32,000 bases of DNA from NCBI GenBank assembly GCA_017475605.1, contig JAFVFD010000005.1, forward strand, positions 90,001 through 122,000, read 5' to 3'. The notes beneath the pieces were generated by a model that saw nothing but the letters and a program-made list of their open reading frames with translations, ran no database searches and was not told where the DNA came from. The position numbers and the translations under genes are program-made. How positions within the stretch are numbered: the stretch's first letter is position 1; every line of letters starts with the position of its first letter. The DNA comes from Alphaproteobacteria bacterium. Its GTDB lineage: Bacteria; Pseudomonadota; Alphaproteobacteria; Rs-D84. Below are positions 1-23,213 of the stretch, piece by piece.

Positions 1-573
1 AACAGTATCCGGTGTGGCAACAATTTCTGTTTTCTGTTCCGGACATGGAGTTGGTTTCACCGGTGCCGACTTCGCTGGCTGCGCTGGTTTAACAGGTGCT
101 GGTTTTGCCGGTTTCACAGGCTGTGCTGGTTTTGCCGGTTTTGCAGGCTTTTTGGCTGGCTTGGCCGGCTTTTTAGCCTGTTTCGCTGGTTTTTCACATT
201 TGCAGCAATCACATTTGTTTTTCGCATCCTTGCAATCACAACCTGTCTTATTACCTTGGCATGCGCAAGCCTTGGCTTCACGACAAACCGCCAAAGAATC
301 ACGCAAATCTGCTATTGTGGAATCACGTACGACAATTGTATCGCGCAAAGCGGAATTTTCATCATTCAATTCACTAATGCGCCCATTTGCCGCTTCGACT
401 GCGTTGCTGGCATCTGTCAATGCTGTATTGTTCTTTGAAACAAGTGTATGCCATTCCTGTGCTTCATCACGTGCAGCACGTTTATCGCTGCACTGTTTAA
501 CACCGAAAACAATAGCGATAACCGCAACCGTTCCCAGTGCGATATTTGCCCAAGTTCTTTTATCCATAGCCAT
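1..573 (-). CDS. Partial membrane-anchored protein (3' end lies beyond the window edge). It has an N-terminal TM helix, a coiled-coil-like segment, a dense Cys cluster and a Pro/Ala/Lys repeat region.
   Basis: Absent from the ORF track because no stop codon lies in the window. Reading the reverse complement from ATG 573..571 gives MAMDKRTWANIALGTVAVIAIVFGVKQCSDKRAARDEAQEWH...CREAKACACQGNKTGCDCKDAKNKCDCCKCEKPAKQAKKPAKPAKKPAKPAKPAQPVKPAKPAPVKP..., open for 191 codons down to position 1. An AAAGGGA Shine-Dalgarno-like motif (revcomp of 580..586) lies 6 nt upstream. A TTGACA-17-TATATT promoter lies further upstream. Confidence 0.6.
   Translation of the reverse strand, partial: MAMDKRTWANIALGTVAVIAIVFGVKQCSDKRAARDEAQEWHTLVSKNNTALTDASNAVEAANGRISELNDENSALRDTIVVRDSTIADLRDSLAVCREAKACACQGNKTGCDCKDAKNKCDCCKCEKPAKQAKKPAKPAKKPAKPAKPAQPVKPAKPAPVKPAQPAKSAPVKPTPCPEQKTEIVATPDTV
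96..141. repeat. 19-nt perfect direct repeat gtgctggttttgccggttt (96..114 and 123..141, 27-nt period) inside the PAK-repeat coding region
   Basis: Read directly from the sequence. On the minus strand it encodes successive KPAKPA units. Confidence 0.8.
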
Positions 574-719: not shown

Positions 720-1580
720 ATGATAAAAAAACTTGCTTTTGTAATACTATCTTGTGCGCTGGTGCCTGTGGTTGGGCATTCGGCGTGTTCACGCGCGAAT
801 TTAACACGTTGTTTGGATTCTGCGTGTGCGGTTAACATATCGTCAAATCCGGCGGCACGTTGTCAATATTGTGGTACTGCGGATGCCGGCGAACCGAACG
901 ACGCGGGGTTGCGTGCCGTATCCGTTGGAACATCTGCGAAATACAATATTTCGGCGCGCGATTTGAAAAGCGCCCCAACCGATCCCGGCGAACGCTATGT
1001 TTGGGCATCAAAAAAATGTATTTCTATTGTTGATGGCTGTACCGCGGACGATGTGTCGGATGTGTACGATAAATTAATTGAACAATCTTGTACCGCCGCG
1101 GGAATAAGTGCACAAATGGCCGTACTATTCGAAAATGCGCGCAAGGTTAAGACAGAATCTGCATGTAAATCTGAAATAACGGCGTGTATGGTTGGCGAAG
1201 CAAAATGTACTTCTAAATACAGCGGCTGTGCCGAAGATGCCGATTTTGATAAATATTTTTCGGAATGTTCCATCGCATCTGTTGGTTGTGATGCGTATTT
1301 GTCGGACATCCGTTCAACACTTGCCACCGCACGCGATCGCGCAATTAAAAACGCCGAGGAAACACTTTTGGCCATTGTCCAATCGTACAGGGATGCGCGT
1401 GCAAAACGTTTGGCTGCAATTACCAAATCGTGCGATGATAACTCTGCGCGCGACGCGTGTATAACATCTGTATGTAACCGCAGTATGCCGAACAAGTGCG
1501 ATGCGGCATATCCATCTGAAAAATCTATGGCAACACAGTTGTGCAAGTTTTATGACATAGCGTGTTCGACATTAAAATAA
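720..1580 (+). CDS. Secreted cysteine-rich protein, small member of the Cys-module family (about 20 Cys in the mature chain by my count)
   Basis: The track ORF 663..1580 starts at a TTG. The first ATG (720) gives a classic signal peptide, MIKKLAFVILSCALVPVVGHS. Cys modules: CSRANLTRCLDSACAVNISSNPAARCQYC (786..875) and CKSEITACMVGEAKCTSKYSGC (1164..1229). A helical Arg/Ala-rich stretch precedes further Cys pairs. Confidence 0.75.
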   Translation: MIKKLAFVILSCALVPVVGHSACSRANLTRCLDSACAVNISSNPAARCQYCGTADAGEPNDAGLRAVSVGTSAKYNISARDLKSAPTDPGERYVWASKKCISIVDGCTADDVSDVYDKLIEQSCTAAGISAQMAVLFENARKVKTESACKSEITACMVGEAKCTSKYSGCAEDADFDKYFSECSIASVGCDAYLSDIRSTLATARDRAIKNAEETLLAIVQSYRDARAKRLAAITKSCDDNSARDACITSVCNRSMPNKCDAAYPSEKSMATQLCKFYDIACSTLK

Positions 1581-1587
1581 ACGGAAT

Positions 1588-3624
1588 ATGTTGAAAATGA
1601 ATACGAACAGAACCGGAATCTTTGGCAGAAAAATTTGTAGTGTGGCCTTTATTATTTTGGCGGTCGTTGCCGATGCGTCGGCTGCAAATGTGGTCCAGCG
1701 AAATACGGTATCTTCAACAAATCGGGTTTCGGCCACACGTCCATCCGCCGCGGCATCTCGTATGCCAACAATGATGGTTAATGTTGGCGCAACATCACAA
1801 AGCACAACACCGGCAGTATCGGACACACCCGCCACGACAACAACGAAAACCACAACTACAAACACCCCGGAACCAACACCAAACATTGAAAACAAATCAT
1901 CACAATTTGGTACGGGCCTTACATCTAAATCAGAAACCCAGATTGACACCGCGGCAACAAACCTGGCTGAATTGGTCCGCGCACAACGTGCTGCACTGGA
2001 TGCGGCGGATGCGACCGCGGCAATAACTGCGGCGGCACAAACCGTTACAATCAACGGGGAAAACTCCTGTGATACCGCGTTGCGTGAATGTATGATTGGC
2101 AAATGTGGTTCTAATTTTGCAAAATGCGTTTCCGATACAGATACTACATTTTTCGATAAAATGGACACATGCCGTCGCACAACGAATTGTACCGGCCATG
2201 AATATCAATTGTTTTCCGTTGAAATCAAGGCCGATCGTGATTTAAACGCAATGCTGGCAAATTATAACGCGACAATCGATTGCGGTAATAATTACGATTC
2301 TTGTATTATCGCACAGTGTGGGGCTAATTATTCCAAATGTATTGGTAAAAGTGCCGGCGACACCGCAATTGCAAAATGCGAATCAATCGCGAAATCATGT
2401 ATTGAACGCGATTCCGGTTTGGCAATGCGAACAATGGGTGTATTTGGCGAACTACGCCAGGATGCCGAACGCCAGATAGCAACCGACGAACAAAAATTGT
2501 ATGCCCTGCGGGATAGAATGCGCACCCTTTGTACGCGTTTGGGTGCAATGTTTGACGAACGCAGTTTGGATTGTGTTTATACGGTTAATTTTTATGCTGG
2601 CAAGGACAACACGCTTTTCGCATCCAAAAAATTATATGCTGGTTCAACATTTGATTGCACACAAAATTGGTTCGGTATTGATGTAACAACATACCGCGAA
2701 AACGCACTCCGCGAAACACGCGCACAAACCGCGGCATCATCTGCGATGCTGGGGTCCGGTCTGGGCCAGGCCGTTGGTGCATTCACATCGGGCGCAATTG
2801 GTCGTGCCGTTGACCGGTTCCGCGCCGACAATGCCCTGGAAGATAAAATCAATGAATGTATGGAAACCCACAACATGACGGAATCAGAATGTCGCGCCAA
2901 GATTAGTCCATCATCTGAAAAAACGGACAAGACGGGAAATGCCAGCGAAACATTAAAGGCCGCCAAAGCACAATTTGATGATATTAAGAACAAGTTGGGT
3001 ACAGACGGTGAAGGAAGTTTTTCAACGGGCACTGTTTCATCTGCGGCCACAGCGGCAGCCGGTGCTGCAACATCCCAAGAAGATGGTTCGACTAAAGAAG
3101 AAGTTGTTGAAGAACAACCTGAAGACGAAGAGGTTTCAATGTCCACCCCAGATAATATAGACAAACCAGTAATCGACAAGAAACAAACAGATGACGTGTA
3201 TGATGTTAATTTGCCAACCTCTTTATCAACTGAACCAATAGCTATCATCAACGGAAAACTTAAGGTAAATGTTGACAATAAGTACGCAGATGCCATTAGA
3301 AACTTTGTGAAAGACGAACGCTGGAAAGGTTCTGAAAAGAAACCACAGATATATAAAAATGTCCCCAACCAAACAATAGAGATAAGTTTATATAATAAGG
3401 CCTGGACTATAAACAAAGACTTGCATGACAAATGGTTGAAAACTACAAAAGTCGATTCAAACAATTATCCTAATGATGAAATGTTTTCAGTTTGTTCAAC
3501 ACTAGAAAGCCAGTATTGTAATGGTTTAGACAACTGTGGCATAAGTTATGTCGGTCGTCATAGTGGCACAGAAGCCAACTATTACTATGGTTGCTACATC
3601 TCTGTGCCATACAGCGAACAATAA
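1588..3624 (+). CDS. Secreted cysteine-rich protein of the Cys-module family, with a Thr/Pro linker, a glycine-zipper-like segment, an acidic linker and an AT-rich C-terminal domain of unknown function
   Basis: Signal peptide ...ICSVAFIILAVVADASA; the start could be 1588 or the ATG at 1597. Modules: CDTALRECMIGKCGSNFAKC (2068..2127) and CGNNYDSCIIAQCGANYSKC (2281..2340). Gly-rich segment MLGSGLGQAVGAFTSGAIGRAV (about 2734..2812). The start lies 7 nt after the upstream stop. Confidence 0.8.
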   Translation: MLKMNTNRTGIFGRKICSVAFIILAVVADASAANVVQRNTVSSTNRVSATRPSAAASRMPTMMVNVGATSQSTTPAVSDTPATTTTKTTTTNTPEPTPNIENKSSQFGTGLTSKSETQIDTAATNLAELVRAQRAALDAADATAAITAAAQTVTINGENSCDTALRECMIGKCGSNFAKCVSDTDTTFFDKMDTCRRTTNCTGHEYQLFSVEIKADRDLNAMLANYNATIDCGNNYDSCIIAQCGANYSKCIGKSAGDTAIAKCESIAKSCIERDSGLAMRTMGVFGELRQDAERQIATDEQKLYALRDRMRTLCTRLGAMFDERSLDCVYTVNFYAGKDNTLFASKKLYAGSTFDCTQNWFGIDVTTYRENALRETRAQTAASSAMLGSGLGQAVGAFTSGAIGRAVDRFRADNALEDKINECMETHNMTESECRAKISPSSEKTDKTGNASETLKAAKAQFDDIKNKLGTDGEGSFSTGTVSSAATAAAGAATSQEDGSTKEEVVEEQPEDEEVSMSTPDNIDKPVIDKKQTDDVYDVNLPTSLSTEPIAIINGKLKVNVDNKYADAIRNFVKDERWKGSEKKPQIYKNVPNQTIEISLYNKAWTINKDLHDKWLKTTKVDSNNYPNDEMFSVCSTLESQYCNGLDNCGISYVGRHSGTEANYYYGCYISVPYSEQ

Positions 3625-3652: not shown

Positions 3653-6600
3653 ATGAAAAAATTATTGATTGCTTTTTTATTTATCGTATCTGTAATACCG
3701 GCGGCATTTTCCGCACAGTCTGATGTGTATTCATGTGGTATTGCGTCATCCGCTTCTGCACCGAATATAGTTCCCGCAGACAATTGTATTCCCCAGGATA
3801 TTTTACGGGACTATCGTGTTATCAAGGGAACCGTTGTCAAGGCAAAAACAGATTCCAGGGAAAAGGTCGAACTTGTTTCCATACGTTTTACCCCGAAAGA
3901 TAAATCTCAATCAAAAGAATTAATGTTCATCGCCAGCCCACATTTCGCATTTTATATCAAGAAAGGTATAGATGGTGATATTTCTTTTACTGCCGATGGA
4001 TATCAAACACTTATATTACACCCACGTGATTTTGATGAAACCATGGGACGTTATGTTGAAATGGTACCCCAAAGTGCAGCCCCAACCACTACAGCACATG
4101 CTGTTGAAAGTCCAACAACACCAACATCTACCCCTGAAGCAAATAAAGCTGCAACCAGCACAACGCGCACACGTGCATCTACGCGTTCAGGTTCTACGCC
4201 ACCAACAAATGGCGGTTCTGCCACTACCGCAACAGTACATAAAAAAATTAACGGCAAGATTATCGAAGGTGACACAAAATTACCCGCTATTGGCGCATAC
4301 GTTACCCCACGTGGTGTCAAATCGTCCCCGTCTAATTCGGGTATAGCCGATGAAACAGGTGCTTTTCATATTGAAATGTTCCCTGCAAACACCGACGCAG
4401 AGGTGTCGTATATGGGGTACACAACAAGAATAGTTTCCGCATCACAAATGAATGATGGGATGAATATTACACTTCAGCCATCTACAGAAACTTTGGACAA
4501 GGCGGTCCTTTCCATTGTTGATTGTGGCAAAGAAAAGCGTGCAGAATTACACGCACTTACAGCCGAAGTATTAAACAACACAACGTGTATTCCAACATCT
4601 TGTGAAAATGGTTATATTTTGGAAAAACCTAAAAACATTGATGCAAAATGTACATCTTGTACAGGTCGTGTTCCCCTGGCCCGCACAGTAACAGTTGAAA
4701 ACAACCAATGTGTTCCTGACAGATGCGAAACAAACCTGGTACGCGTTGGCAATCAATGCTTGGTCGATTGTGATAAATTCAAATCTAAATTAAATGCCAA
4801 GACGGTAACACGAAAGACCCCCGGGCCAACAACTATTGCCCCAAACAATGACTATTCTTCATTTTGTAACATAGAAAGTTGTATAAACCATTCTTTCAAA
4901 AAAATTGATAATCAGTGTGTCTTACAAACAGACAAAGAATGTGATGATGTCGCCAAAAACATTAAATATGCATCGCCAAAAGGTAAATATATATACGATC
5001 GCAAGACCGATACTCTTATCTGCATTCCGGACTCTTGTACAGCAACGGGATATGTTGTTAATAAGACTACTGGTCAATGCGAATTAAAAGATAACAATTG
5101 CCCTGCTGAAATCTTGGAAAAGATGGATCCAAATGCATCGGCGGGCAGTATAAAAGAACGTGACCCCATCACAGGTGTTGCCAAAACATGCGAAATTACA
5201 GGGTGTAATAATTCCATGACCCCTAATTCCAACGGCACCAAATGCGTCAATTCGCAATGTGGCTGCGGTCAAACTTGGGATTCAACAAAAGATGAATGTG
5301 TGTCAAAAACCGAAAGAACATGCAGTGTAAAAAATGTAAAACACGCAAAGCCGTCTGGAAAATTACAATGCCAAAACACAACAAGCATGGCATTGTCTGA
5401 CGCATGCGACAAGAATACTAGTTGTAAAGAAATCTGTGCTGTTACAGAATGTGAAGACGATTACAAATTAAACCAACAAAACAATTCTTGTGATGTTCCA
5501 ACCGGTGAATGCGATTTTACTGGCGACAAACAATTCGCCAAAGACAAAGGTATTTGGAAAGAAAAATCAGGTGTGTTGGTTTGTGAACCCATCTGTAATG
5601 GCACAAACTATGAACTTGACTGGAACCCCCAAGAAAAGAAGTATAACGGTTGCAAAGTTAAATATTGTCCATGTGGTTCAATCTTGGATGACTCGACAAA
5701 GTCTTGTAAAACATGGGCCGAACTTGGTAAATCTAACTGCGACCCGATGCCGACTGGCGCAACAGCGGCCACCCGCAGTTGTCGCGATAATTCCAGTGGT
5801 GTCGAAACCACCAACTGTGCCGACGGTACATGTACAGAATTCTGTAAGATAACCGCGTGTGATACGGCCGCCGGATATATATTAAAGGATGGCACATGTG
5901 AATCTCAGGTTGGCAAACCATGTACCGCCGAGCAATTGCCAGAAAACGCGGTGGCGGGAACACAACGCGAAAACAATGGCAAGATAGAATGTGTTATCAG
6001 CAAATGCGCCAACGGATTTGAGGTTCGCCCTGATGAATTGTCCTGTGCACCCAAAATGGTATTAAGTCCGGAACAATACCAAGATGAAATCGCCGAACTG
6101 GCCGACAACGCACAAAAAATGCATGAACGTGAAACATCGTTGGAAAATCGTATATTGGGCGCGGCGGGAATTGGCGCAACGGGTATTGGTGGTACAATGA
6201 TTGGCGGCGCATTGGCCGAACGTCGTGCGGACGATGATGCGGAACGCGCAATGCGTGCATATCTGGAAACATTCCATTGCGATTATGGTAATGGTACGAA
6301 TGTAAAGGGTGGCGAAACAAATGTCGAATTACCGGGCGGTAACGATATGATTGGCCTTTACACCGAATACGCACAACTTGCCAATGATTTAAAGATTCGC
6401 AAGGAAGCCCTGGGCCTTCGTCCCGGCATTGAATCCGAGGTTGTTATTGACAAGGCCGAAACAGGTTTATACGAATACAGCAATAACGGTATTACCGGTG
6501 GAACGTACGCATCTATCGCACGTGCCCTGCTGAACCCAGACGGCGAAGATGCAAAGATGTGGGCCGCGCAACGCGCCGCCACCGACAGCAAATTAAAAAC

Positions 6601-7642
6601 AGGTGCAATTGTCGCCGGTGTTGGTACGGTGGGTTCCCTGGTCGGCAACATCGCAATCAATCATGGCAAGGGAAATAATGCAAAAGAGATTATAGCAAGA
6701 TATGAAAAATTACGCGCACCACTTGCCGTGGCCGCTGAACATGCCAACACACCGTATACCCCGGGTGATAATTCGCTTGATTGTTCTAGATTTACCGGAA
6801 CCACAGGTGTTGGTAAATCACCAAACTGCGTATGCGCAGACCCAACAAACACAAGATTTAACTATGACCGTGGTGGTTGTGTTCCATGCGAAAGCAACAA
6901 GGTATATAATCAAAACGACGAATGTGTGTGCCCAAGTGCAACACCACGTTGGAACGATGCGACAAATCGTTGCGAGTCAGAACCAACCGTTTGTCCATTG
7001 GCAAATAAATTAAAACACGCCACAAAATGTGAATGTGTTGAAAACGCAAGTGCGCCAGACGGCAAAAATTGCCAATGCAAAACAGACGAAGGTTTCGAAG
7101 AAAAAGACGGTCAATGCGTTCAGAAAGAAGTACCACCAGAACACGAATCTGGATCAGAAATTGGAAAATTCTCGTTCTCGGCAGATGCCCTTTTCGCGTC
7201 AAGTCGCTGGGAAATCAAATCTGACAAGCTTACTCAACTGCGCAGCGATTTGGCAAATGCAAAACAAACTGCGACAACCGAAAAAATTGATTTGAACGCG
7301 GACGATTATTGTGTCGTCGTCGTTGGAAAAACCGACCGCACACAATATCCTAAAAACAGTTCTATGAACAATACAAAACTGTCTTTGTATCGCGCAAATG
7401 CCATCAAAAACGAATTAAAAACTGTATTCAAAGAATCTAATATACTTACCTATGGCATCGCAGCGAAAGACTGTCCGAAAACAAAATATCCCAGGGCAAA
7501 TACCGCCGATTGCCGTCGTGTAGATGTTACTTGGTTGGCAGGATCATGCGAAGACAATAAAAATAATACAACAAATTGGATTAGCAATGTCGCAGAAGCA
7601 ACAGATGCTATATCAGAATTACAGAGTTTATTAAAAAAATAA
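3653..7642 (+). CDS. Giant mosaic envelope protein (1329 aa). Order: signal peptide, one or two CarboxypepD_reg-like beta-sandwich domains, at least 8 Cys repeats, two glycine-zipper-like segments, EGF-like Cys repeats, C-terminal OmpA_C-like domain.
   Basis: Signal peptide MKKLLIAFLFIVSVIPAAFSA. INGKIIEGDTKLPAIGAYV...DETGAFHIEMFPANTDAEVSYMGYTTRIV...NITLQPS (about 4241..4483) matches the CarboxypepD_reg pattern. Repeats of the form C-x3-4-C-x2-3-[GY]-x-[LV]-x4-7-C include CIPTSCENGYIL, CIPDSCTATGYVVNKTTGQC, CKITACDTAAGYILKDGTC and CVISKCANGFEVRPDELSC. ILGAAGIGATGIGGTMIGGALAERR lies at 6153..6220 and GAIVAGVGTVGSLVGNIAINHG at 6601..6666. CQCKTDEGFEEKDGQC is EGF-like. The C-terminus ...VVVVGKTDRTQ...NNTKLSLYRANAIKNEL...CRRVDVTW (about 7168..7540) fits OmpA_C (GhTD...N..LS..RA...RRV). 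Confidence 0.85.
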   Translation: MKKLLIAFLFIVSVIPAAFSAQSDVYSCGIASSASAPNIVPADNCIPQDILRDYRVIKGTVVKAKTDSREKVELVSIRFTPKDKSQSKELMFIASPHFAFYIKKGIDGDISFTADGYQTLILHPRDFDETMGRYVEMVPQSAAPTTTAHAVESPTTPTSTPEANKAATSTTRTRASTRSGSTPPTNGGSATTATVHKKINGKIIEGDTKLPAIGAYVTPRGVKSSPSNSGIADETGAFHIEMFPANTDAEVSYMGYTTRIVSASQMNDGMNITLQPSTETLDKAVLSIVDCGKEKRAELHALTAEVLNNTTCIPTSCENGYILEKPKNIDAKCTSCTGRVPLARTVTVENNQCVPDRCETNLVRVGNQCLVDCDKFKSKLNAKTVTRKTPGPTTIAPNNDYSSFCNIESCINHSFKKIDNQCVLQTDKECDDVAKNIKYASPKGKYIYDRKTDTLICIPDSCTATGYVVNKTTGQCELKDNNCPAEILEKMDPNASAGSIKERDPITGVAKTCEITGCNNSMTPNSNGTKCVNSQCGCGQTWDSTKDECVSKTERTCSVKNVKHAKPSGKLQCQNTTSMALSDACDKNTSCKEICAVTECEDDYKLNQQNNSCDVPTGECDFTGDKQFAKDKGIWKEKSGVLVCEPICNGTNYELDWNPQEKKYNGCKVKYCPCGSILDDSTKSCKTWAELGKSNCDPMPTGATAATRSCRDNSSGVETTNCADGTCTEFCKITACDTAAGYILKDGTCESQVGKPCTAEQLPENAVAGTQRENNGKIECVISKCANGFEVRPDELSCAPKMVLSPEQYQDEIAELADNAQKMHERETSLENRILGAAGIGATGIGGTMIGGALAERRADDDAERAMRAYLETFHCDYGNGTNVKGGETNVELPGGNDMIGLYTEYAQLANDLKIRKEALGLRPGIESEVVIDKAETGLYEYSNNGITGGTYASIARALLNPDGEDAKMWAAQRAATDSKLKTGAIVAGVGTVGSLVGNIAINHGKGNNAKEIIARYEKLRAPLAVAAEHANTPYTPGDNSLDCSRFTGTTGVGKSPNCVCADPTNTRFNYDRGGCVPCESNKVYNQNDECVCPSATPRWNDATNRCESEPTVCPLANKLKHATKCECVENASAPDGKNCQCKTDEGFEEKDGQCVQKEVPPEHESGSEIGKFSFSADALFASSRWEIKSDKLTQLRSDLANAKQTATTEKIDLNADDYCVVVVGKTDRTQYPKNSSMNNTKLSLYRANAIKNELKTVFKESNILTYGIAAKDCPKTKYPRANTADCRRVDVTWLAGSCEDNKNNTTNWISNVAEATDAISELQSLLKK

Positions 7643-7686: not shown

Positions 7687-8442
7687 TTATGGGTTGTAAT
7701 AACAACTGCTTGTAAATTGAAAATTACCAATATTATCGTGCAGTGTATAGTTCCCTGGTATATAACACTCATTTATGGCAGAGGCCCCTGCCCCTATTGT
7801 TGTTCCAACCGCTGCATCAGTGCCACTTGTTCCAGCATAAAATGTTGAAGATATCGGACATCGACTGCAAGAATTATTATTTAAATAATATCCTTGTACA
7901 CACACAAAATTCGGCCCACCTGGACAACCAGCATTATCAGGACACGCATTACACCGCGGGTCGTCCATTGAACTGGCTATTCCGTAATACCCAGATGCAC
8001 ATCTAAACTCTACTATTGTATTACATGTGCCACAAATACATGTTTTTCTTTGTCTCATTTGAATGTGATACGAATTAGCCGGTGTCCAGTCTGAATCGGA
8101 ACAATTTGTACAAGATGCCGAAGGGCACCCGCAGGTTTTATAAATATTCGTTGACGAATATTCACATCCATCATCTGTATAAGTTACATCCGTTAACACT
8201 TGACCTGTATTACATGATGTGCAACTTTGTACAGGACGAAAAGCCACGCTACCACTGCCATCGTAATTTGGATTAACAATAAAGTATATTGTTTCCGATG
8301 TTTTACAATTACTGCCAGTTATTATTGTTGAAAGTACATAAGAAGAATCGGGCCTGGTTTTTGTATTTGTACATGTTTGTCCATAAGCGTTAGTAAGTGT
8401 AACAAATATTATACTAGATGTGATTAAACAGTTCCTCTTCAT
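7687..8442 (-). CDS. Secreted cysteine-rich protein with ephrin-receptor-like / furin-like (GCC2_GCC3-type) repeats
   Basis: Signal peptide MKRNCLITSSIIFVTLTNAYG. Repeats: CASGYYGIASSMDDPRCNACPDNAGCPGGPNFVCVQGYYLNNNSCSRCPISSTFYAGTSGTDAA...INEC. This fits the C..GYY...C..CP pattern typical of eukaryotic-type Cys-rich repeats. RBS AAAGGGAAGGGGA lies upstream. The gene looks AT-rich relative to its neighbours by eye. Confidence 0.75.
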   Translation of the reverse strand: MKRNCLITSSIIFVTLTNAYGQTCTNTKTRPDSSYVLSTIITGSNCKTSETIYFIVNPNYDGSGSVAFRPVQSCTSCNTGQVLTDVTYTDDGCEYSSTNIYKTCGCPSASCTNCSDSDWTPANSYHIQMRQRKTCICGTCNTIVEFRCASGYYGIASSMDDPRCNACPDNAGCPGGPNFVCVQGYYLNNNSCSRCPISSTFYAGTSGTDAAVGTTIGAGASAINECYIPGNYTLHDNIGNFQFTSSCYYNP

Positions 8443-8901: not shown

Positions 8902-11900
8902 TTAGAATCTGTACGACCCAGACAATCTGAACTTGTGGAACTGAATATCGTTGTTATATTGATAACGATAATCAAGACCCATTTGGAATCCCTTGGCCGA
9001 CAACAATTCCACACCACCACCAATATTTGCCCACAATGGATCAATATCTACACTGTACTTGCTGTAAGTTTTCGCCGGACCAAACTTAAAGTTAATTGAA
9101 TCTGGAACCCCCAGGACATCATATTCGATTCCCGCCGATGCATATGGACGAACCTGGAACCAGGATGTTGGGTATATACGTTTTTGTACAATCAACGAAT
9201 AGCCCGGTGTGAATATCAGATAACCATCCGAATCCATTTGCATATAATCGGAACCTGCGGCCTTTTCTTTGACCGAGAAGCCAAAGTTATATCCAACACG
9301 CGCATACGCGTTACCGACCAGATATTGATTCAACCAATCATGTAACAGGCCCCATTCGGAAATCAAACTAAATGCCGTACCGGAACCACTTATGCTTGAA
9401 ACATAGTTCTGTTCACGCGAAATATCCAGCAAGTGTAAATCAAAGAACCCGTTTCCATACAGACGTGTTTTCGTACCCAAAATCTTCATCATGTATGCAC
9501 CCAAACCAATATTCGTGTCTGCAACATCAAAACTGACGCGGCCATTGATGGTTTCATTTGGTCTGTAACTTAAATCTATTGTATCAGCATCATCAGATGA
9601 CATGTGCGAAACATGGCCAACAAATCCCAAAAGTAATGTTGAAGAATGTTGCCAATCATAACCGCCCATTATGCTGAATCTGTCGCCGTTCGCATGTTTT
9701 CCATCATCTGTATTTTGATAGAATAAACCATAGTCAACATCAACCCATGCTTTTTTCAAACTGCGATGACGATTCCAAATAAATTCATCCAACATGTGAT
9801 CTTCGAAATCGCGGAATGTGGTATGTTCATTTAACACAACATCGCCCGCAACCAATTCTGCTTCACGTGGCTGGACCAGGCGACTAAACCGCGCCAATGC
9901 TGTACCATCCGGATTCAACACATATTGTTCCATACGGTTGTACAATTCATTTGCCAATTCTTCTAAATTAGTTCCGGCAAATGCTACTGGTATCGCCTCG
10001 ATTGGTGTAGTGTTATTAAACTTCTTATCCTTTAACCCACCCGCAATCATTTCGTCCAATGCGCCGGCGGCATCATGTTCACCATCGGTATGATTATCTA
10101 CACGATCCACAATTGGTTGAATTTTGAAGACTTCAACCGGACCACCAAAGCGGGAATCAAACACGATATAGATACTGTCGGTTACACCATCTTCGTCTAT
10201 ATCACGCACCGTCAGATATGCCGGTAATTGTGTTTGCGTTTGGTTCGCGTTTGCATTTTCAGCAATAGAATTGTCGAAATACTTGAAACACAAACTGCCA
10301 TCGGCATTACAGAAATTGACATTCAGGTTACGAATCTTGTTTGCCAATTCATCCAAGCCTTCACTGCTGGCGGAATGTAACAACCAAATGGCGGTACCAC
10401 TGTCCACCATATCGAATATATCAATTCCGATTTGTGGCGCGACCAATTCATCGCCCGACAATTCAGAACCAACATTCGTTGCCTTGTTGATAAAACGACC
10501 CGCAACAGAAATCAATGGTGCCGCATTACCATCTGTGGCATTTGTGATTTGACCCAATGTATTATCATCAGCCAATGATACCGTCGACCAATAATTGTAT
10601 GTTGTTGAATTAATTTCCACACCCGGATATCCTAAAATCGCGGCATGTATCATGCTGTTATTATCAAATGTATAATTACCGCCAACATCCATGTGTTCAA
10701 GGCCAACAAATTGTACCCCGCCAGAAACATTACCACCCACATCAACATCCAGCCAGTTATTTGCTGGATCCGCCTGGATACGCAAATTGGTTGCATCAAT
10801 ATTATTCGTAATCGCAACATCACTGCTTTTAATCGTCATTGAACCAGATTCCTGTTTGATTCCCTTGACGGTTAAATTAGATGTTGTTAATACATGATTG
10901 TCGGACATTATGTTAACATCGCCCGTTCCCAACCCAGATGTATAATTTTGACGCAACATTCCACCAATCGTAAACGCATTACCCAATGTCAAGGTATTTG
11001 CGGTTATTGTTGCCGTCCCAGTGTTATTTTTGAACGATGCGGCATTAACGGCACCTGATGTTGTCTTTAATGACAAAGTACCAGTATTTTCCACAACCCC
11101 CAATGACAAATCATCAGTTGTATTCAATGTCAACGTGCCCGCGTTTTTGGTCTTTGCGTTGTTCCCCGTTATCGCGACAGATTCCGCATTGATTATTGCC
11201 GTACCCGCTGCAACAACATCAATACCATTTGCAAATGTCGCATTATTTGTAATGTTATAAGTTACTGTATTGGCATTAACCAACAATGCACCACCTGAAA
11301 CATTCAAATTATCTGCCTTCAATGTGCCGCCATTATTCAAGACCAACACACCACCGGTTGTGCCACCCTGGCTCATATCGCCATTGGATACAGATATATC
11401 GCCATCAACATCTATCGCCCCAGATGCCAACTTGGTTGTTCCGCCCGACAATGTCATACTATCTGAATTAACAGATGCACCCGACAAAGTAACATCGCCC
11501 CCCGATACAACCACAGAATCTATGCCCAGCGCATTTGTTGCCGCCACCGTCGTTGTCCCGGCCGATGAATCCAACCCGGACATTGTTATGGCCTTGGCAT
11601 TTATATCCAATGTACCTTTGTTCGTTACAGTACCCGTATTAACCGAATCGGTGGTGTTCGTGGTTCCCAATGAAACCGTACCAGATGTCCCATTGTTAAT
11701 CGCCGCTGTTTTAACGGTTGTACCGGTTGCCGTAACCGTACCACCATTTGTTGTTGTTATTGCATCATTAAACTTAACCACATTAGATGCAGTAACATTT
11801 AACACACCATTCGCTGTATCTGCCACAATTGCACCACCCAACGTTGCATCGTTTCCGGACACAATATTCAATGTTCCATTTTTAATCGATGCACCACCAT

Positions 11901-14097
11901 CTACCAATACATCGCCGGTATTCGTTTTTAATGTAATTGCGGATGGGCCACTTATAACCACACCCTTGGTTTGACCGGTTGTACCGTCAAAGAATATTCC
12001 ATTATCAATATCAATGTCGCCACTTGTTGCGGTTACACCATTCCCATGCAGAAGGAACAATCCAGCCCCCGACAAAGATTTTAATGTTGTTGCACCAGAA
12101 TATATTTCAACCGTTCCACCATTGTTTGCCGTAACATCACCAGTAATATCTAATGTTGTTTGCGTTGTTGATGTTGGTGCGTTACCGAACGCAATATTCC
12201 CCTTGCCACCAACGGTTACATCGCCACCAACCTCTATTACATTGGCCGCCAATGTTCCAGTACGCGCCACAGACGAATCGGTTGCGGTAACATCACCATC
12301 AATATTTATTTGTCCAGTGGACGCAAGTGTAAATCTGTTAACACCACTGTTTGCAACATTAACATCGCCCGCCGCGGTTGCATTAGTTCCACTAAATGTT
12401 AAATTGCCATTGATTTGCGTTCCGCCACCAACAGTTAAATTATATGTATTCGCCCCAACGTTAAACGCACCCGTCGTTACCAAAAGGTCGTTAGTTATTG
12501 TTGCGCCACCAATCCGCGCATCCAGGTTTGTTACACCACCCTGGGCATCAATACCACCGATAACAACACTGGCCCCTGCCAAATCGGAGCCCTCGATTGT
12601 CGTTGTTCCTGCGGTTGTTAACACAACGCCATCAATTGCGATTTGACGCGCACTAACATCAGTTGTTCCACCGGAATTGCTAACCCCACCAGACAAATGA
12701 ATTTTTCCAGTCGGATCGGTTTGCGCCGCAACGGTCAAAACACCATTACCAGTATTGGATACACTGGTTAATTCTATGATATCGCCATTCAATGTCATCA
12801 CACCGGCATTAGATACCGCCCCGGTCGCGGTTAATGTGCCATCCGCAGAAACCGTCGTTTTTGACCCGGCGGCACCATAAATACTTGTCCCAGATGGTGT
12901 AGTAATTGTGATATTACCGGCGGTGTCTTCTATTGTAGAAACTGTTAATTGATAACCGCGGTTTTGAATTGTGTTGGCTGTTATGCCGCCGGCCCCCGCG
13001 GTCAAAGTCATATTTGCCGCCGCGTTTTCTGAACCGTTGGAAATATTGTTCGCAGCAATTGAACCGCCACTTACCACCAATTCAAAGTTTGTTAATTTAT
13101 TATTTTCAAAAACCTGGGACAGACTGTCTGCACCGCCACCCAAATTCAATGTACCTGTTTTAAGGCTGAAAGTATTGGTGGCCTCCATATCGCTTAAATC
13201 AAAACCATATGCCAAACTAGTTTCACCCGTAACAACAATTGATAAATTACCCTTGTTCACGAACGATGCCTGGGTCCCCGAACCACCATTAATTTCCAAT
13301 GAATCAACCGCAATATTCATGATACTGCCGGTGTTATCATTCTTCATTGTTCCATCAACAGTCATATCCGTACCGGTTATACGCATAAGGGTTCCACTGT
13401 TTTCGACACTGCCACTTGTTGTAATTTCATCACCCGATTCAACAAGCATAGAACCACTGTTGTTTTGGATATTACGCGCAGAAATACTGCCCGCTGTGAT
13501 TTGCGTTTCCGCATTACCATTTGCGATAAAATCGTTAGTAATCGCTAAACCATTTGTAACATTGATTGTTGTGTTTCCGGACACAGAATCAATCGTTCCG
13601 GTTATATTTGCGGCATTCGCGGTTATTTCAAGGTTATCCTTGCTGGTAATATTACCGGTATTAAGTGTACCGATATTTTCCATTACCAACCCACCATCCG
13701 CACTTATCGTACCAATATTAACAGACGAAATTGTTGTGCCCTGGGTTTTAGATTTAATCCCCAACGAATAACCAGACAAAACTTCTAATACACTTGTAAT
13801 AGAAACATTACCATCACTTGCAATTGTATACGGATTCAATGCGGTTGGTTCAACAAAAATCTGACCACTGGCAACCCCGGAACCAGCCTGTCCAACATAC
13901 AAATTACTTGCCGACAAACCGCCGGTTCCCAACGATAAACCGTTACCTGAAATAACACGCACAAAATTATCAGACGGCACCGCCAGCCCATCCATAACAT
14001 TTGAATTCGGGGCCGTCGCCGGATCAATAACAATCGGTTCCGCGACCGCCGCGCTAAACGGCACAACACATGACATAAATGCTAAAAATTTTTTCAT
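8902..14097 (-). CDS. Type Va autotransporter (1731 aa) with a long repetitive beta-helix-type passenger and a C-terminal beta-barrel translocator
   Basis: Signal peptide MKKFLAFMSCVVPFSAAVAEP. About 1200 aa are rich in Gly/Thr/Asn/Val with degenerate repeats (..GGTTxV, ..TxTGxxV..). The C-terminal ~280 aa show an alternating hydrophobic pattern and end in ...FRLSGSYRF, with the terminal aromatic typical of OMP barrels. Confidence 0.9.
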   Translation of the reverse strand: MKKFLAFMSCVVPFSAAVAEPIVIDPATAPNSNVMDGLAVPSDNFVRVISGNGLSLGTGGLSASNLYVGQAGSGVASGQIFVEPTALNPYTIASDGNVSITSVLEVLSGYSLGIKSKTQGTTISSVNIGTISADGGLVMENIGTLNTGNITSKDNLEITANAANITGTIDSVSGNTTINVTNGLAITNDFIANGNAETQITAGSISARNIQNNSGSMLVESGDEITTSGSVENSGTLMRITGTDMTVDGTMKNDNTGSIMNIAVDSLEINGGSGTQASFVNKGNLSIVVTGETSLAYGFDLSDMEATNTFSLKTGTLNLGGGADSLSQVFENNKLTNFELVVSGGSIAANNISNGSENAAANMTLTAGAGGITANTIQNRGYQLTVSTIEDTAGNITITTPSGTSIYGAAGSKTTVSADGTLTATGAVSNAGVMTLNGDIIELTSVSNTGNGVLTVAAQTDPTGKIHLSGGVSNSGGTTDVSARQIAIDGVVLTTAGTTTIEGSDLAGASVVIGGIDAQGGVTNLDARIGGATITNDLLVTTGAFNVGANTYNLTVGGGTQINGNLTFSGTNATAAGDVNVANSGVNRFTLASTGQINIDGDVTATDSSVARTGTLAANVIEVGGDVTVGGKGNIAFGNAPTSTTQTTLDITGDVTANNGGTVEIYSGATTLKSLSGAGLFLLHGNGVTATSGDIDIDNGIFFDGTTGQTKGVVISGPSAITLKTNTGDVLVDGGASIKNGTLNIVSGNDATLGGAIVADTANGVLNVTASNVVKFNDAITTTNGGTVTATGTTVKTAAINNGTSGTVSLGTTNTTDSVNTGTVTNKGTLDINAKAITMSGLDSSAGTTTVAATNALGIDSVVVSGGDVTLSGASVNSDSMTLSGGTTKLASGAIDVDGDISVSNGDMSQGGTTGGVLVLNNGGTLKADNLNVSGGALLVNANTVTYNITNNATFANGIDVVAAGTAIINAESVAITGNNAKTKNAGTLTLNTTDDLSLGVVENTGTLSLKTTSGAVNAASFKNNTGTATITANTLTLGNAFTIGGMLRQNYTSGLGTGDVNIMSDNHVLTTSNLTVKGIKQESGSMTIKSSDVAITNNIDATNLRIQADPANNWLDVDVGGNVSGGVQFVGLEHMDVGGNYTFDNNSMIHAAILGYPGVEINSTTYNYWSTVSLADDNTLGQITNATDGNAAPLISVAGRFINKATNVGSELSGDELVAPQIGIDIFDMVDSGTAIWLLHSASSEGLDELANKIRNLNVNFCNADGSLCFKYFDNSIAENANANQTQTQLPAYLTVRDIDEDGVTDSIYIVFDSRFGGPVEVFKIQPIVDRVDNHTDGEHDAAGALDEMIAGGLKDKKFNNTTPIEAIPVAFAGTNLEELANELYNRMEQYVLNPDGTALARFSRLVQPREAELVAGDVVLNEHTTFRDFEDHMLDEFIWNRHRSLKKAWVDVDYGLFYQNTDDGKHANGDRFSIMGGYDWQHSSTLLLGFVGHVSHMSSDDADTIDLSYRPNETINGRVSFDVADTNIGLGAYMMKILGTKTRLYGNGFFDLHLLDISREQNYVSSISGSGTAFSLISEWGLLHDWLNQYLVGNAYARVGYNFGFSVKEKAAGSDYMQMDSDGYLIFTPGYSLIVQKRIYPTSWFQVRPYASAGIEYDVLGVPDSINFKFGPAKTYSKYSVDIDPLWANIGGGVELLSAKGFQMGLDYRYQYNNDIQFHKFRLSGSYRF

Positions 14098-17602: not shown

Positions 17603-17695
17603 AAAGTATCCCCTTTCCTAATTGTCTGTATTATACGATTTTTCGCAAAATTAGTAAAGCATAAAAACACAGAACCCAACAATTATTACAGGTTT

Positions 17696-19896: not shown

Positions 19897-21993
19897 TTAT
19901 TCACATGCACCATACGATGCGGCAACGGTCGCATTTTCGATACACACACTGCCCGATACCGCGCATGCGGAGCGAACCAAAGTGATTGTACCATCAATGC
20001 TTGATTTGTAATTCAGGGCCGCGGCCTTACACTGATTCAAATCAGTATATTCCGCACATGACAATTTCCAAGACTTACAATCAACCGCGGTTGCTGTTGG
20101 GCTAACCGTATCTGGCAAACGCAGATTCCATTTCACATAAAAATCTTTCAATGTGCCAATCGAATGTGATTTACCAAAACCAACCGTATTCAAACCATCA
20201 CCAACACGACAGTTAATATTGTTGCGTTCAACAAATGCGGTAATAGCGGTCGCCAAACCACCGGTTCCCGCACCAATCGCCGCGCCGGTTGCAATACTCT
20301 TGCCCATATTAGACTTTTCGCCATTCAACACATCAAGGCCACCGAACACACCATCTAATTCGGCAATTTCAACCTCGGTTTCATCCTTGTTAACACAGCC
20401 GATACCCAGGTTTGTACATTTCAAACCACCTGCCAAATTGTCCGGATTGCGTAATGACTTGAAACGGCAACCAACTGTATCTTTGGCACACGAAGATGCC
20501 TCAACATTCAAATCACCAGATTCAATCGAACCAACCGAAACCAAGTAATCTATACAAGGTTTAGTATCCAATTTCCCGGCACCCGCACACGTTGTTGCCA
20601 GCAAGTTATCAATACAGGCTATTTTAGCACCATCATCTTCACAACCCGCTGGTAATTCATATCCATTCGGATCAAACGAATCATTATAGACAAATGTACA
20701 ATTCAACACATCATTACCAAAGCAACGGCTAATATCTTGCTTTACGGTTTGATAGTTTGTGTACAAATCGACAATCGCACGACATTGACGCGCCGTCAAA
20801 TCATTCGTTGTGATTTTATCGCCTTCGGGTAAATATCTGTTAAGAGAATAGATATTCACACTTTTACGCAATTGGTCGCTTAATGTTTTGACCGCAGATT
20901 TATTATCGCAATCAAATGCGCGTTTGCCATGGCCCGCCAATGCACCAATTCCGGCACCGGCCAATGTTCCGCCACCAATACCCACAACCGCGGCAGTGCT
21001 TGTATCGTTCATCAACGAAAAACCGAACAAATCTTTGTTACAAGTGAATGTATCGCCGGCGGCACGCCAAACCTCGGCTGGCTGGTCATTGCCCAGTGCA
21101 CCGAACAACCAGTTGTTTTTGATTTGAGTGTCTTTGTTATATGCGGCCACGCGCAGATAGCAGGTTGCAGTTGTTGCATCCCAACGCGCATAGTGTCCAC
21201 GCGCCCCATCAACACCCGGGTTGCCATAATTTAATTCTGCGCCCATCGGATTAGTCTTGATTAACACCCCGCCCTGTTGATTATTATAGGCACCAACGCG
21301 GTTATTATATTCACTTGTTGTACCACCATTGTTTTCGACGGCTGCAAACGATGGCCCATATGTATTCACATCCAACAACAGACATGTGTTTTCAGCCTGG
21401 TTTGGTGTCAAACCCGTTTTGCGCAAAACAAAGTTGTAATATTCCGGCTGAATCTTGCGCGAATTAAAGTCAACCCAAACATCTGCGATTGCGCGATATA
21501 CAGGCTTGCAATCACGACGAACATCCGTCATACATTTTTCCACCTGAATCGAGCAAAGCCCCATGCCATTCATAATCGCATTACGCATATCTTCGTTGAA
21601 CAAATCATTCAAACCACCCGGCAAGGCACCGTTATTTATACACGCCAAAACATCGTTCATACAGTTTTGAACAGTATATTCAGAATTACGCACACCACCA
21701 TCTGGACATTCCGGGGTTGGTTGTGGATCTGGCTGTGGATCATCTGGTTTTGGGTCCGGCTGTGGTTGTGGTTGTGGTTGCGGTTGTTGTGCAACATTTG
21801 TTGATATATTTGCCGGATTAATTGTCATTGTCGGCATAGACGGCATACGAAACGATTGTGCACCCGCACGATTACCCGCACGAACATTTGCCGCCGCACG
21901 CGGTGTTGCATCCGCCGCAAATGCCGCACAAACAAAGGATATTACACCGAAACAGGCAACCAGGCCGCCGAATAATTTTGATGATTTTGTCAT
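19897..21993 (-). CDS. Secreted cysteine-rich protein of the Cys-module family, with a PQ repeat and two glycine-zipper-like segments
   Basis: I prefer the start ATG at 21993 (MTKSSKLFGGLVACFGVISFVCAAFA), which has GGGGGGA 7 nt upstream; the track start 22008 has no RBS. It contains QQPQPQPQPQPDPKPDDPQPDPQP, the modules CMNDVLAC (21640..21663) and CSIQVEKCMTDVRRDC (21508..21555), VVGIGGGTLAGAGIGALAGHGKR (about 20921..20995) and ATGAAIGAGTGGLATAITAF (about 20232..20305). Confidence 0.8.
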   Translation of the reverse strand: MTKSSKLFGGLVACFGVISFVCAAFAADATPRAAANVRAGNRAGAQSFRMPSMPTMTINPANISTNVAQQPQPQPQPQPDPKPDDPQPDPQPTPECPDGGVRNSEYTVQNCMNDVLACINNGALPGGLNDLFNEDMRNAIMNGMGLCSIQVEKCMTDVRRDCKPVYRAIADVWVDFNSRKIQPEYYNFVLRKTGLTPNQAENTCLLLDVNTYGPSFAAVENNGGTTSEYNNRVGAYNNQQGGVLIKTNPMGAELNYGNPGVDGARGHYARWDATTATCYLRVAAYNKDTQIKNNWLFGALGNDQPAEVWRAAGDTFTCNKDLFGFSLMNDTSTAAVVGIGGGTLAGAGIGALAGHGKRAFDCDNKSAVKTLSDQLRKSVNIYSLNRYLPEGDKITTNDLTARQCRAIVDLYTNYQTVKQDISRCFGNDVLNCTFVYNDSFDPNGYELPAGCEDDGAKIACIDNLLATTCAGAGKLDTKPCIDYLVSVGSIESGDLNVEASSCAKDTVGCRFKSLRNPDNLAGGLKCTNLGIGCVNKDETEVEIAELDGVFGGLDVLNGEKSNMGKSIATGAAIGAGTGGLATAITAFVERNNINCRVGDGLNTVGFGKSHSIGTLKDFYVKWNLRLPDTVSPTATAVDCKSWKLSCAEYTDLNQCKAAALNYKSSIDGTITLVRSACAVSGSVCIENATVAASYGACE
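21761..21790. repeat. Hexanucleotide tandem repeat (TGTGGT x3, then TGCGGT, TGTTGT) encoding the PQ repeat
   Basis: Read directly from the sequence. It is in frame: 6-nt units encode Pro-Gln on the minus strand. Confidence 0.8.
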
Positions 21994-22095: not shown

Positions 22096-22123
22096 TTGAC
22101 AAAAACAATATCTTGTCTATAAT
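22096..22123 (+). promoter_or_regulatory. Consensus sigma70 promoter TTGACA-16-TATAAT, placed 7 nt upstream of the ATG at 22131 (leaderless configuration)
   Basis: TTGACA at 22096..22101 and TATAAT at 22118..22123, both perfect hexamers. There is no Shine-Dalgarno sequence between the -10 and the ATG. Confidence 0.55.
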
Positions 22124-22130
22124 AGAATTG

Positions 22131-23213
22131 ATGTGGAATAAAGTACAAGATTTTTATAACAATAACAAACATGCGATTATTTGGACCGCATGCTATATCT
22201 TTGCGTCATGGGCCATTATGCGCTATATGTTTAATTTCAATATCTTTTCCGCAACCCGTTGGCACCAACTGTTTCATTCGCATCTGTATGGCTTTGCGGG
22301 TTTCGTATTCAGTATTTTGATTTTGGCGATGGTGCCACTTTACATTGCAACGACCGTTATTATCGCACGAACCAAAACGCCACTTTTTAATATAAACATA
22401 ACAATACCTGAATTTATCAAGACTTTTATTAAGAACGCATTTATTCAAACACCAATGCCGGACGAAGAACCACTTGCCACCACAGTTCAGGAAAACGAAT
22501 CGGGACAAGAAAACCCAACCGAACAAACACCAGGCAACGAAAATACGGAAACACCGACCGAAACCACATCGCCCAACCCCGTACCAGACACCGTCCCGGC
22601 GGAATTACGCGTTGCATATATGCGCGCCCGCGACAATGTTTTACACACACAGAAATCTGTATTTGACCTTGCTAATACCACCCGGACACCCGCCCCGGCA
22701 CCAATCGCCGAACCGGCAAGTGCGGATGCCACCCCAATGGAAGATTTTTCTATTCCAACAGATTTTGATATTACCGACACAGACAGCATTATGGGGAACG
22801 TGCCAACATTTACCGATATTGACCTGGATGCCGATATTGATGACGATACCGATGAACAAACACCCGAAATTACAGACATAAAAACCCAAAACAATGAAAA
22901 CCAAGATGTAATAAACTATCTGAACAAAAAATCTGTTCCATGTGAAATTATTGACGACATTGTTGTAACTGACAAATTCGCAATTGCATCGCACACAGAT
23001 TCTGATTTCTGGGTTGCGGACAATGAATCATGGTTTGCCGCCGGAAAAATAAGAAAATCACCAATTGTATCTGTGTTAAATGTTGCAAAGCAACGCAACG
23101 TCCAACCGGTGTTATATTTGACATACGATAACATAATGGACATTGATGAATTGCGTACTGGGTGGCAAGATGCCGGCATTCGTGTGATAAACAACTTGGA
23201 CGAATTAAAATAA
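22131..23213 (+). CDS. Membrane protein with N-terminal TM helices, a long acidic Thr/Pro/Asp/Glu-rich linker and a C-terminal globular domain of unknown function
   Basis: The track ORF starts at TTG 22113, inside the promoter spacer; the first ATG is at 22131 (MWNKVQDFY...). Hydrophobic segments: AIIWTACYIFASWAIM and LYGFAGFVFSILILAMVPLYIATTVII. Acidic tract: ...DFDITDTDSIMGNVPTFTDIDLDADIDDDTDEQTPE. Confidence 0.7.
   Translation: MWNKVQDFYNNNKHAIIWTACYIFASWAIMRYMFNFNIFSATRWHQLFHSHLYGFAGFVFSILILAMVPLYIATTVIIARTKTPLFNINITIPEFIKTFIKNAFIQTPMPDEEPLATTVQENESGQENPTEQTPGNENTETPTETTSPNPVPDTVPAELRVAYMRARDNVLHTQKSVFDLANTTRTPAPAPIAEPASADATPMEDFSIPTDFDITDTDSIMGNVPTFTDIDLDADIDDDTDEQTPEITDIKTQNNENQDVINYLNKKSVPCEIIDDIVVTDKFAIASHTDSDFWVADNESWFAAGKIRKSPIVSVLNVAKQRNVQPVLYLTYDNIMDIDELRTGWQDAGIRVINNLDELK

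Follow-up and report, generated by a model that had tools for sequence, protein, structure and literature searches.

Sets of disulfide-rich exported envelope proteins that belong to single lineages have precedents. The Helicobacter HcpA-E proteins, which are Sel1-like, are secreted and all-alpha, their Cys pairs staple helices at a periodicity of ~36 residues, and their paralogues have expanded within a lineage of host-associated bacteria. The OmcA/OmcB/MOMP complex of chlamydiae is likewise lineage-specific, Cys-rich and exported, in an obligately dependent bacterium whose envelope is thought to be disulfide-braced, and the twin CX9C and CX3C hairpins of the CHCH proteins and small Tims of mitochondria place Cys pairs on one helix face and pin a second helix. 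Further points of comparison are the glycine-zipper outer-membrane lipoproteins YiaD and SlyB together with OmpA anchors, and TraN of F-type conjugation, a large Cys-rich envelope protein with about 22 conserved Cys. Here we describe a locus that resembles each of these in part, within a 32,000-nucleotide stretch of DNA (hereafter the window) from a gut metagenome-assembled Alphaproteobacteria bacterium of the order Rs-D84 (assembly GCA_017475605.1, contig JAFVFD010000005.1, positions 90,001 to 122,000). Three of its exported proteins, A, B and E, share a six-Cys module that is a previously undescribed helical building block.

Protein A (720..1580, plus strand) is the smallest family member at 286 amino acids (aa), B (1588..3624, plus) has 678 aa, and E (23240..26194, minus) is the largest, with 984 aa and 38 conserved Cys. 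An initial annotation of this DNA had proposed four paralogous signal-peptide proteins built on a C-x6-C-x4-6-C-x6-C module, the fourth being protein D (19897..21993, minus; 698 aa counted from MTKSSK, with some positions below given in a 703-aa numbering). N-terminal hydrophobic, signal-peptide-like leaders are indeed found in all four, and the peptides quoted in the annotation are all present in A, B, D and E at the positions it gave. Together with protein C (3653..7642, plus; 1329 aa, 69 Cys) and protein H, these Cys-rich exported proteins take up ~12.7 kb, or ~40% of the window. Protein E is 100% identical to the NCBI entry 'MAG: hypothetical protein IJ866_02430 [Alphaproteobacteria bacterium]' (MAG, metagenome-assembled genome) and is also present on a 364-kb scaffold of sample ERZ28654170. 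Orthologue alignments were built from 77 related genome loci, of which about 23 kb per genome was fetched, and from database homologues.

The Cys spacing of these proteins goes beyond their composition, as the annotation had supposed. Gaps of the C-x6-C type number 5 to 11 per protein where 0.5 to 1.2 are expected (6 against 0.9 in A, 5 against 0.5 in B, 6 against 1.0 in D and 11 against 1.2 in E; 2000 shuffles per protein, P <= 0.001 in each), and the same shuffle test finds no enrichment in C or in H (22 Cys), the other Cys-rich proteins of the window. The proposed four-Cys pattern is present, and shuffling A, B or E reproduces it in only 0.1-1.4% of cases, but the true conserved unit exceeds it: a stretch of ~45 residues reading C-x6-C-x4-6-C-x6-C-x11-14-C-x5-7-C. 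This six-Cys pattern occurs in 151 of 151 homologues of A, 142 of 142 of B and 191 of 204 of E, and in none of the 49 homologues of D, the 20 of C or the 52 of protein K (22113..23213, plus; 366 aa). Among 1061 other open reading frames (ORFs) from the related loci it appears in 21, and those of the 21 that have independent family evidence are extra B- or E-like paralogues. The module Cys are invariant across 119 B, 106 E and 31 A homologues.

In A, the module starts with CKSEITACMVGEAKCTSKYSGC at aa 149 and extends to aa 190 (1164..1289, plus), with the spacing C-x6-C-x6-C-x6-C-x12-C-x6-C, and it aligns with the modules of B and E. B contains two copies, one at aa 161-201 (2068..2190, plus), which includes CG.DF..C.GDTDT, and one at aa 232-271 (2281..2400, plus). 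E is internally duplicated, with aa 287-466 matching aa 477-593 at 86%; repeat 1 (24797..25336, minus) contains a four-Cys module at aa 310-331, and repeat 2 (24416..24766, minus) contains a six-Cys module at aa 497-538. In the AlphaFold2 models of B and E, the first two module Cys sit seven residues apart on one face of a long helix, close to its end. The chain then makes a tight CG.D[FY]..C turn, with Cys 3 and Cys 4 in it or just past it, and the last two Cys lie in or beside a short return helix. The Arg/Ala/Glu-rich helix that was said to follow most modules instead precedes module 1 in the E model. E also has an N-terminal Cys motif at aa 108-132 (25799..25873, minus; C-x6-C-x4-C-x9-C-x-C), whose five Cys are all invariant. 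A second module, described as opening both A and E, is in register between the two proteins, but it reaches just P = 0.025, which we do not count as significant by itself, and its first gap in A is x7, not x6.

Pairwise BLASTP between the window proteins gives E-values of 0.003-0.06 in a tiny database, too weak to decide on common descent, and full-length hhalign with 20-sequence alignments returned the signal peptides alone. Both results are compatible with a module that is convergent or compositional, in which case A, B and E would not be paralogues. In place of full-length hhalign we used local hhalign that allows alternative alignments, cross-searches with profile hidden Markov models (HMMs) and reversed or shuffled controls. 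The HMM cross-hits are 1.4e-7 for A to B, 3.7e-5 for A to E, 8e-7 for B to A and 1.8e-6 for B to E, whereas the best hits in the control databases are 0.05-1, a separation of 4-6 orders of magnitude. Local hhalign over 110-230 columns gives 88% for A-B (38% with a larger alignment), 70-74% for A-E and 75-77% for B-E, and less than 10% for the neighbours K and C. The alignments reach well past the Cys, into residues such as CG.D[FY]..C.G.DTDT, and in one case pair KCG.DF.KC.GDTDT of B with RCG.DYTQCIGLDTDT of E. Because of the HMM cross-hits, the hhalign results, the shared non-Cys residues and the duplication within E, we regard A, B and E as very likely true remote paralogues. Convergence is hardly credible when the six-Cys pattern is near-universal in these three families and absent from other Cys-rich proteins, and when the genes are syntenic. 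Protein C was rejected as a family member (hhalign below 5%, different Cys spacing), and H was rejected on its Cys spacing.

The place of D differs from what the annotation proposed. Its Cys stretch (CSIQVEKCMTDVRRDC at aa 152 in the 703-aa numbering) contains three Cys and fails to align with the module (0.1% for that stretch); with the module found in 0 of 49 D homologues as well, we rejected it as a module copy. D is nevertheless tied to B by a full-length similarity of 90-92% (hhalign) that resides in two non-module elements. The first is a leader, R...RMP(T/S)M, just past the signal peptide (82-96%). The second is a beta element, DC.Y.V..Y...AG.TF.C....FG, followed by an invariant-Gly zipper (87%, E = 4e-6). 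D is thus a mosaic relative of B and not a module-bearing member. The RMPTM leader is also found at the head of E-like paralogues of 720-776 aa in other genomes, which make up a third class. Written as R...[SQ]RMP[ST]M, it lies ~25 aa past the signal peptide in B (aa 58-62, 1759..1773, plus), in D (~21826-21849, minus) and in E-like paralogues of five related loci (L015, L018, L024, L037 and L046). The leader may act as a signal for sorting or processing; to our knowledge, no known signal matches it.

The genes for A, B and E belong to a cluster of six. In the related loci, K and D are adjacent in 51 of 51 cases, always with K divergent to D; C and B are adjacent in 20 of 20, B and A in 29 of 29, E and K in 39 of 52, and D and C in 16 of 21. 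The commonest six-gene order, E+ K- D+ C- B- A-, is found in E-anchored genome loci and, independently, in D-anchored metagenome loci. In this window the cluster lies in two halves, and between them are a 1731-aa autotransporter-like gene, enolase, an OmpA-family lipoprotein, a secreted 271-aa protein and lptC/lptB. What the annotation described as paralogues scattered among housekeeping genes is therefore peculiar to this genome: because relatives mostly keep one contiguous cluster, the split arrangement is the derived state and the contiguous cluster the ancestral one. Genes A, B and C point in the same direction and are separated by 7 and 28 nucleotides; their strand shows no terminator-like site in either gap, and at 628-656, upstream of A, there is a promoter-like site, for which reasons A-B-C is probably an operon with A as its first gene. 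E-like genes are often found in tandem, in 2-5 copies, some of them truncated (L026, L042, L069, L152 and others), and divergent E-like classes of 720-800 aa lie beside the cluster, for example at 17530-19917 and 20382-22550 of L001.

The family is large and narrowly distributed. Among 1.84 billion proteins, an E profile matches 887 representatives at E <= 1e-3 and 281 at E <= 1e-30, and a relative of E is encoded in no fewer than 380 of the species genomes in GTDB. A has 730 homologue clusters at 90% identity, the best 120 of which are 277-330 aa long, mostly 286-289, and B has 823. The homologues of A, B and E that carry a name are all called 'hypothetical protein' and belong to Alphaproteobacteria or to unclassified gut MAGs, and the GTDB relatives are labelled Candidatus Enterousia, 'uncultured Rickettsiales' or 'Alphaproteobacteria bacterium', one of them a circular genome of 958 kb. 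Their hosts' guts are those of humans, ruminants, horses, birds and rodents. Judged by these matches, the E-K-D-C-B-A cluster is confined to the genome-reduced gut order Rs-D84 / Candidatus Enterousia, in agreement with the annotation's view that the system is lineage-specific. Enterousia belongs to the order Rs-D84, has genomes of 0.75-1.0 Mb that encode few biosynthetic pathways, and lacks a respiratory chain; the order has been suggested to depend on partner cells and encodes many hypothetical membrane proteins (PMC12306168). In the literature on Rs-D84 and Enterousia, we found no description of the proteins studied here.

Across homologues, Cys residues of these proteins come and go in pairs. 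In E, C420/C466 are lost together in 4 of 4 cases, C432/C448 in 5 of 5 and C504/C530 in 6 of 6, and C950/C979 are co-lost or co-absent in 54 of 57-64. In B, C424/C435 are absent together from 72 homologues; in D, C456/C465 are co-lost or co-absent in 12 and C437/C507 are gained or lost together. Such paired gain and loss is the signature of defined disulfide pairs, and from it we infer a C504-C530 disulfide in E. Among 1030 distinct module instances, the sole internal loss pattern is a missing second Cys, and in the two such instances that reach the fifth Cys, that residue is missing as well. Because the second Cys is lost together with the fifth, the four-Cys core is not a self-contained knot, its Cys 2 pairing with Cys 5 outside the core. 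The annotation's view of disulfide-stabilised proteins gains support from these losses, but its suggested two-disulfide knot does not, as C504 of E pairs by co-loss with C530 beyond the four. The invariant or conserved Cys number 20 in mature A (an even count), 38 in E and 15 in the core of B (an odd count).

These Cys might instead bind metal, as zinc or iron-sulfur sites, in which case the proteins would be periplasmic redox or metal-handling factors. The very high Cys content would fit such a role, as would a strictly fermentative anaerobe for which no respiratory chain is reported (PMC12306168). We consider this highly improbable, however. The Cys disappear in twos and not in ligand sets of three or four, and their spacing is C-x6-C, whereas metal sites typically have CxxC or CxxCH. 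We noted no conserved His partners in the invariant columns, and no metal-binding family was matched in Pfam or NCBIfam, including by the set of E orthologues.

Searches with all window proteins and with orthologue sets found nothing in Pfam or NCBIfam for A, B, D, E or K. PDB sequence profiles returned low-complexity artefacts only (for example huntingtin and TBP), and Foldseek found nothing significant against PDB for the B and E models or against BFVD for the E model. The sequence family and its detectable fold are thus new and undescribed, and the annotation was right that no named family applies. Hcp-like repeats are not the answer: no Sel1 repeat (Pfam PF08238) is detected at E <= 0.1 in any of these four proteins (A, B, D and E) or in 20 orthologues of E, and the ~36-residue Cys periodicity is not seen, the gaps being dominated by x6. 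A, B and E use C-x6-C within a six-Cys unit, and unlike the Hcp proteins they are part of a set of far larger proteins with glycine zippers, variable heads and an OmpA-protein cluster partner. The module also differs from the CHCH hairpins in its x6 spacing, its six Cys and the pairing of Cys 2 with Cys 5 outside the four-Cys core; the present proteins are bacterial and exported, not mitochondrial, and have no Pfam CHCH match. For TraN, there is likewise no family match in Pfam or NCBIfam and no secretion ATPase or transfer gene in the cluster; the neighbouring genes in the window are those for enolase, LptC, LptB, an OmpA-family protein, rpoA and rplQ.

The cluster combines strongly conserved scaffolds with hypervariable parts. 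A is a signal peptide followed by a wholly Cys-rich domain, whose mature part holds its 20 invariant Cys. E is conserved throughout, without a variable part, and its orthologues average 67% column identity; its long-helix scaffold is followed by an Ala/Gly/Val-rich linker and a small C-terminal beta domain. The AlphaFold2 model of E has a mean predicted local distance difference test (pLDDT) score of 77 and a predicted template modelling (pTM) score of 0.58, with residues 100-840 at ~90 and helices of up to 58 residues. The hydrophobic Ala/Gly/Val-rich segment at aa 847-917 (23444..23656, minus) is variable in length and has low model confidence, being poorly modelled over aa 854-917, and the conserved beta domain after it (aa 922-984, 23243..23431, minus) is confident, with pLDDT about 93. 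We regard aa 847-917 as a doubtful candidate for a conserved transmembrane hairpin, given its variable length and an occupancy of ~50%.

B and D have a mixed construction. B runs from the signal peptide and RMPTM leader through a Thr/Pro linker and a helical Cys domain to a glycine zipper and a C-terminal alpha/beta head. Conservation covers aa 91-420, ending just past the zipper (aa 382-405, 2731..2802, plus; G389, G391, G393, G397 and G402 invariant), and aa 421-678 are hypervariable and essentially unalignable (identity about 0.05), and in homologues this part is often an immunoglobulin (Ig)-like CarbopepD_reg domain. The B model has a mean pLDDT of 65, with a helical core plus small beta element at aa 160-350 (~90) and a variable C-terminal domain at 85-95, so that the variable head is a confidently folded domain. 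D has, in order, the signal peptide, an RMPSMPTM leader, a conserved N-terminal domain, zipper 1, a variable Cys-containing insert, zipper 2 and a conserved C-terminal domain, the conserved parts being aa 91-360 and 541-703. Zipper 1 (aa 336-359 in the 703-aa numbering, 20932..21003, minus) has invariant Gly and is preceded by AGDTFTCNKDLFGF, in a stretch homologous to aa 320-430 of B (87%, E = 4e-6). The insert (aa 391-540, 20389..20838, minus; identity 0.09-0.30) separates it from zipper 2 (aa 571-594, 20227..20298, minus), which reads GxxxGxxxG with invariant Gly.

Protein C, outside the module family and probably co-operonic with A and B, supplies a possible anchor. Its N-terminal region (aa 31-780) is hypervariable, with CarbopepD_reg and epidermal growth factor (EGF)-like Cys repeats, and its orthologues also carry an N-terminal CarboxypepD_reg-like Ig-type domain. 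Next, at aa 811-1020 (6083..6712, plus), comes a conserved domain made up of two glycine zippers and the stretch between them, and a divergent OmpA-like peptidoglycan-binding domain lies at aa about 1173-1304 (7169..7564, plus). This last domain is weak in the window copy, which scores 15.2 bits on Pfam OmpA (cut-off 27.2) and E = 1.1e-7 on TIGR03350, below that model's cut-off, but 6 of 7 C orthologues score 54-69 bits on OmpA, so that membership of C in this domain family is best assigned by orthology. Like YiaD/SlyB with OmpA anchors, C joins zippers to a C-terminal OmpA-like domain, but its length is 5-6 times theirs, its N-terminus is hypervariable and carries Cys repeats, and it is not a lipoprotein, its leader being of the signal peptidase I type. 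The Gly-zipper_Omp, Rick_17kDa_Anti and YiaD models gave no Pfam match, and NF053611 matches the OmpA part of C only (E = 0.043). The probably co-operonic OmpA-domain protein C, the conserved glycine zippers and the hypervariable domains are features that the initial annotation had not recorded. Protein K has two transmembrane helices, a Pro/Glu/Thr linker of acidic character and, at the C-terminus, a conserved domain of ~95 aa, with no Pfam or NCBIfam match in 11 orthologues.

Taken together, these observations lead us to propose, with a probability of roughly 0.45, a disulfide-braced, peptidoglycan-tethered envelope scaffold that would show variable heads for contact with a partner or host. 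In this model, the proteins would be exported via Sec and would fold as long all-alpha scaffolds braced by many intramolecular disulfides. The glycine zippers of B, C and D and the OmpA peptidoglycan-binding domain of C would attach them to the envelope. The hypervariable, partly Ig-like domains (the C-terminus of B, the N-terminus of C and the insert of D) would be held at the cell surface, where they may mediate contact with a partner cell or a host surface. The annotation's suggestion of an envelope or surface system fits in its envelope part, given the signal peptides and the OmpA-domain operon partner, but the surface role is our extrapolation.

Several observations weigh against this proposal. 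The hhalign probabilities that join A, B and E are moderate, and the A-B value fell from 88% to 38% on the larger alignment. The zippers are borderline hydrophobic (Kyte-Doolittle 1.2-1.7) and poorly modelled by AlphaFold2, so that their insertion into a membrane is putative. C has two zippers, which does not imply a simple one-pass topology with the variable part outside and OmpA inside, and E has no hypervariable head. Finally, because Rs-D84 is reported to lack a respiratory chain, the usual quinone-dependent oxidation of Cys by DsbB or VKOR is doubtful in this lineage.

The high conservation of E (67% mean column identity, 38 conserved Cys), its long modelled helices of 45-58 residues and the OmpA tether in C would also suit a purely structural, cross-linked shell in the periplasm or on the inner face of the outer membrane, one that rigidifies the envelope without binding a partner. 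Such a shell may serve survival during oxic transmission between hosts, like the chlamydial Cys-rich outer-membrane complex; the bacterium is anaerobic, and oxidation could happen on exit from the gut. The odd number of invariant Cys in the B core (15) would leave one free for an intermolecular bond. However, the pairwise Cys losses speak for defined intramolecular bonds and not for a random mesh, and a purely internal strut would not readily account for regions of B, C and D that are hypervariable and domain-swapped. The chlamydial parallel is also incomplete, as the models here are helical and not beta-rich, the Cys losses point to intramolecular pairs, Rs-D84 keeps its peptidoglycan synthesis genes (PMC12306168), and no chlamydial Cys-rich outer-membrane protein family is matched in Pfam or NCBIfam. 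We judge a shell of this kind unlikely.

The invariant GxxxGxxxG runs in B, C and D raise a different prospect, in which Gly/Ala-rich zippers would enter the partner's or the cell's own outer membrane and form a pore or fusion bridge for metabolites, in the manner of VacA-type GxxxG channels or viral fusion peptides. The composition of AVVGIGGGTLAGAGIGALAG in D is one that we take to resemble that of fusion peptides, and we treat this as a lead only. Rs-D84 genomes are without standard transporters, and uptake via intercellular connections has been suggested (PMC12306168). A conduit is decidedly unlikely in our view, however, because the models resemble neither a pore former nor a viral fusion protein in the PDB and BFVD searches, Pfam yielded no family of glycine zippers or toxins, and the zippers are internal, not terminal, and of marginal hydrophobicity.

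Returning to the scaffold with variable heads, a bolder version, which we hold to be rather unlikely, is that E-K-D-C-B-A encodes a new surface organelle that defines Rs-D84, with a helical stalk and swappable heads for attachment to other cells and perhaps for drawing metabolites out of these. This would amount to a disulfide-braced stalk of novel fold, tethered to peptidoglycan and outer membrane, in bacteria with genomes of about 0.8-1 Mb and, if true, would give the proteobacteria an equivalent of the epibiotic lifestyle that has been proposed for Patescibacteria. Rs-D84 / Candidatus Enterousia, with genomes below 1 Mb, are uncultured and widespread in the guts of humans, livestock, birds and rodents, and a cluster this large that is conserved, unannotated and structurally unmatched is a prime candidate for the machinery of a dependent lifestyle. 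It also poses a biochemical puzzle, namely extensive disulfide bonding in a fermentative anaerobe for which no respiratory chain is reported. In practical terms, the six-Cys module can serve as a new domain family definition, the cluster as a diagnostic for the order, and the confident models as a guide to experiments.

The remaining genes of the window lie outside the family. Protein H (7687-8442, minus; 251 aa, signal peptide) has its 22 Cys in x1/x2 EGF-like spacing, and its C-terminal third alone has relatives in the fetched loci (L038, L069). The three exported products encoded between the cluster halves are the 1731-aa protein (8902-14097, minus), with a Gly/Thr/Asn-rich repetitive passenger-like region, a barrel-like C-terminus ending in ...RLSGSYRF and no Pfam or NCBIfam match at E <= 0.1; the OmpA-family lipoprotein (16046-17602, minus), with lipobox LGAC and a Cys/Pro-rich linker; and the 271-aa protein (17696-18511, minus), with a Gly/Ser-rich C-terminus. 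An ORF at 1-573 (minus) runs past the left edge of the window and encodes a membrane anchor at the N-terminus, a stretch resembling a coiled coil, a dense Cys cluster (CACQGNKTGCDCKDAKNKCDCCKCEK) and PAKPAK-type repeats. ORF G (14-598, plus) looks spurious and is probably a shadow of it; ORF L (28965-29372, minus) looks spurious as well. Scans for tRNA genes and Rfam families found none in the window. The plus strand has a persistently negative GC skew, with a cumulative value of -1.5 over 32 kb. At 29518-31977 (minus), and also at 2856-6677 of L078, the type I restriction-modification genes hsdM and hsdS and an alpha/beta-hydrolase-like gene lie between rpsK and rpoA, an insertion that breaks the usually contiguous ribosomal-protein / rpoA operon.

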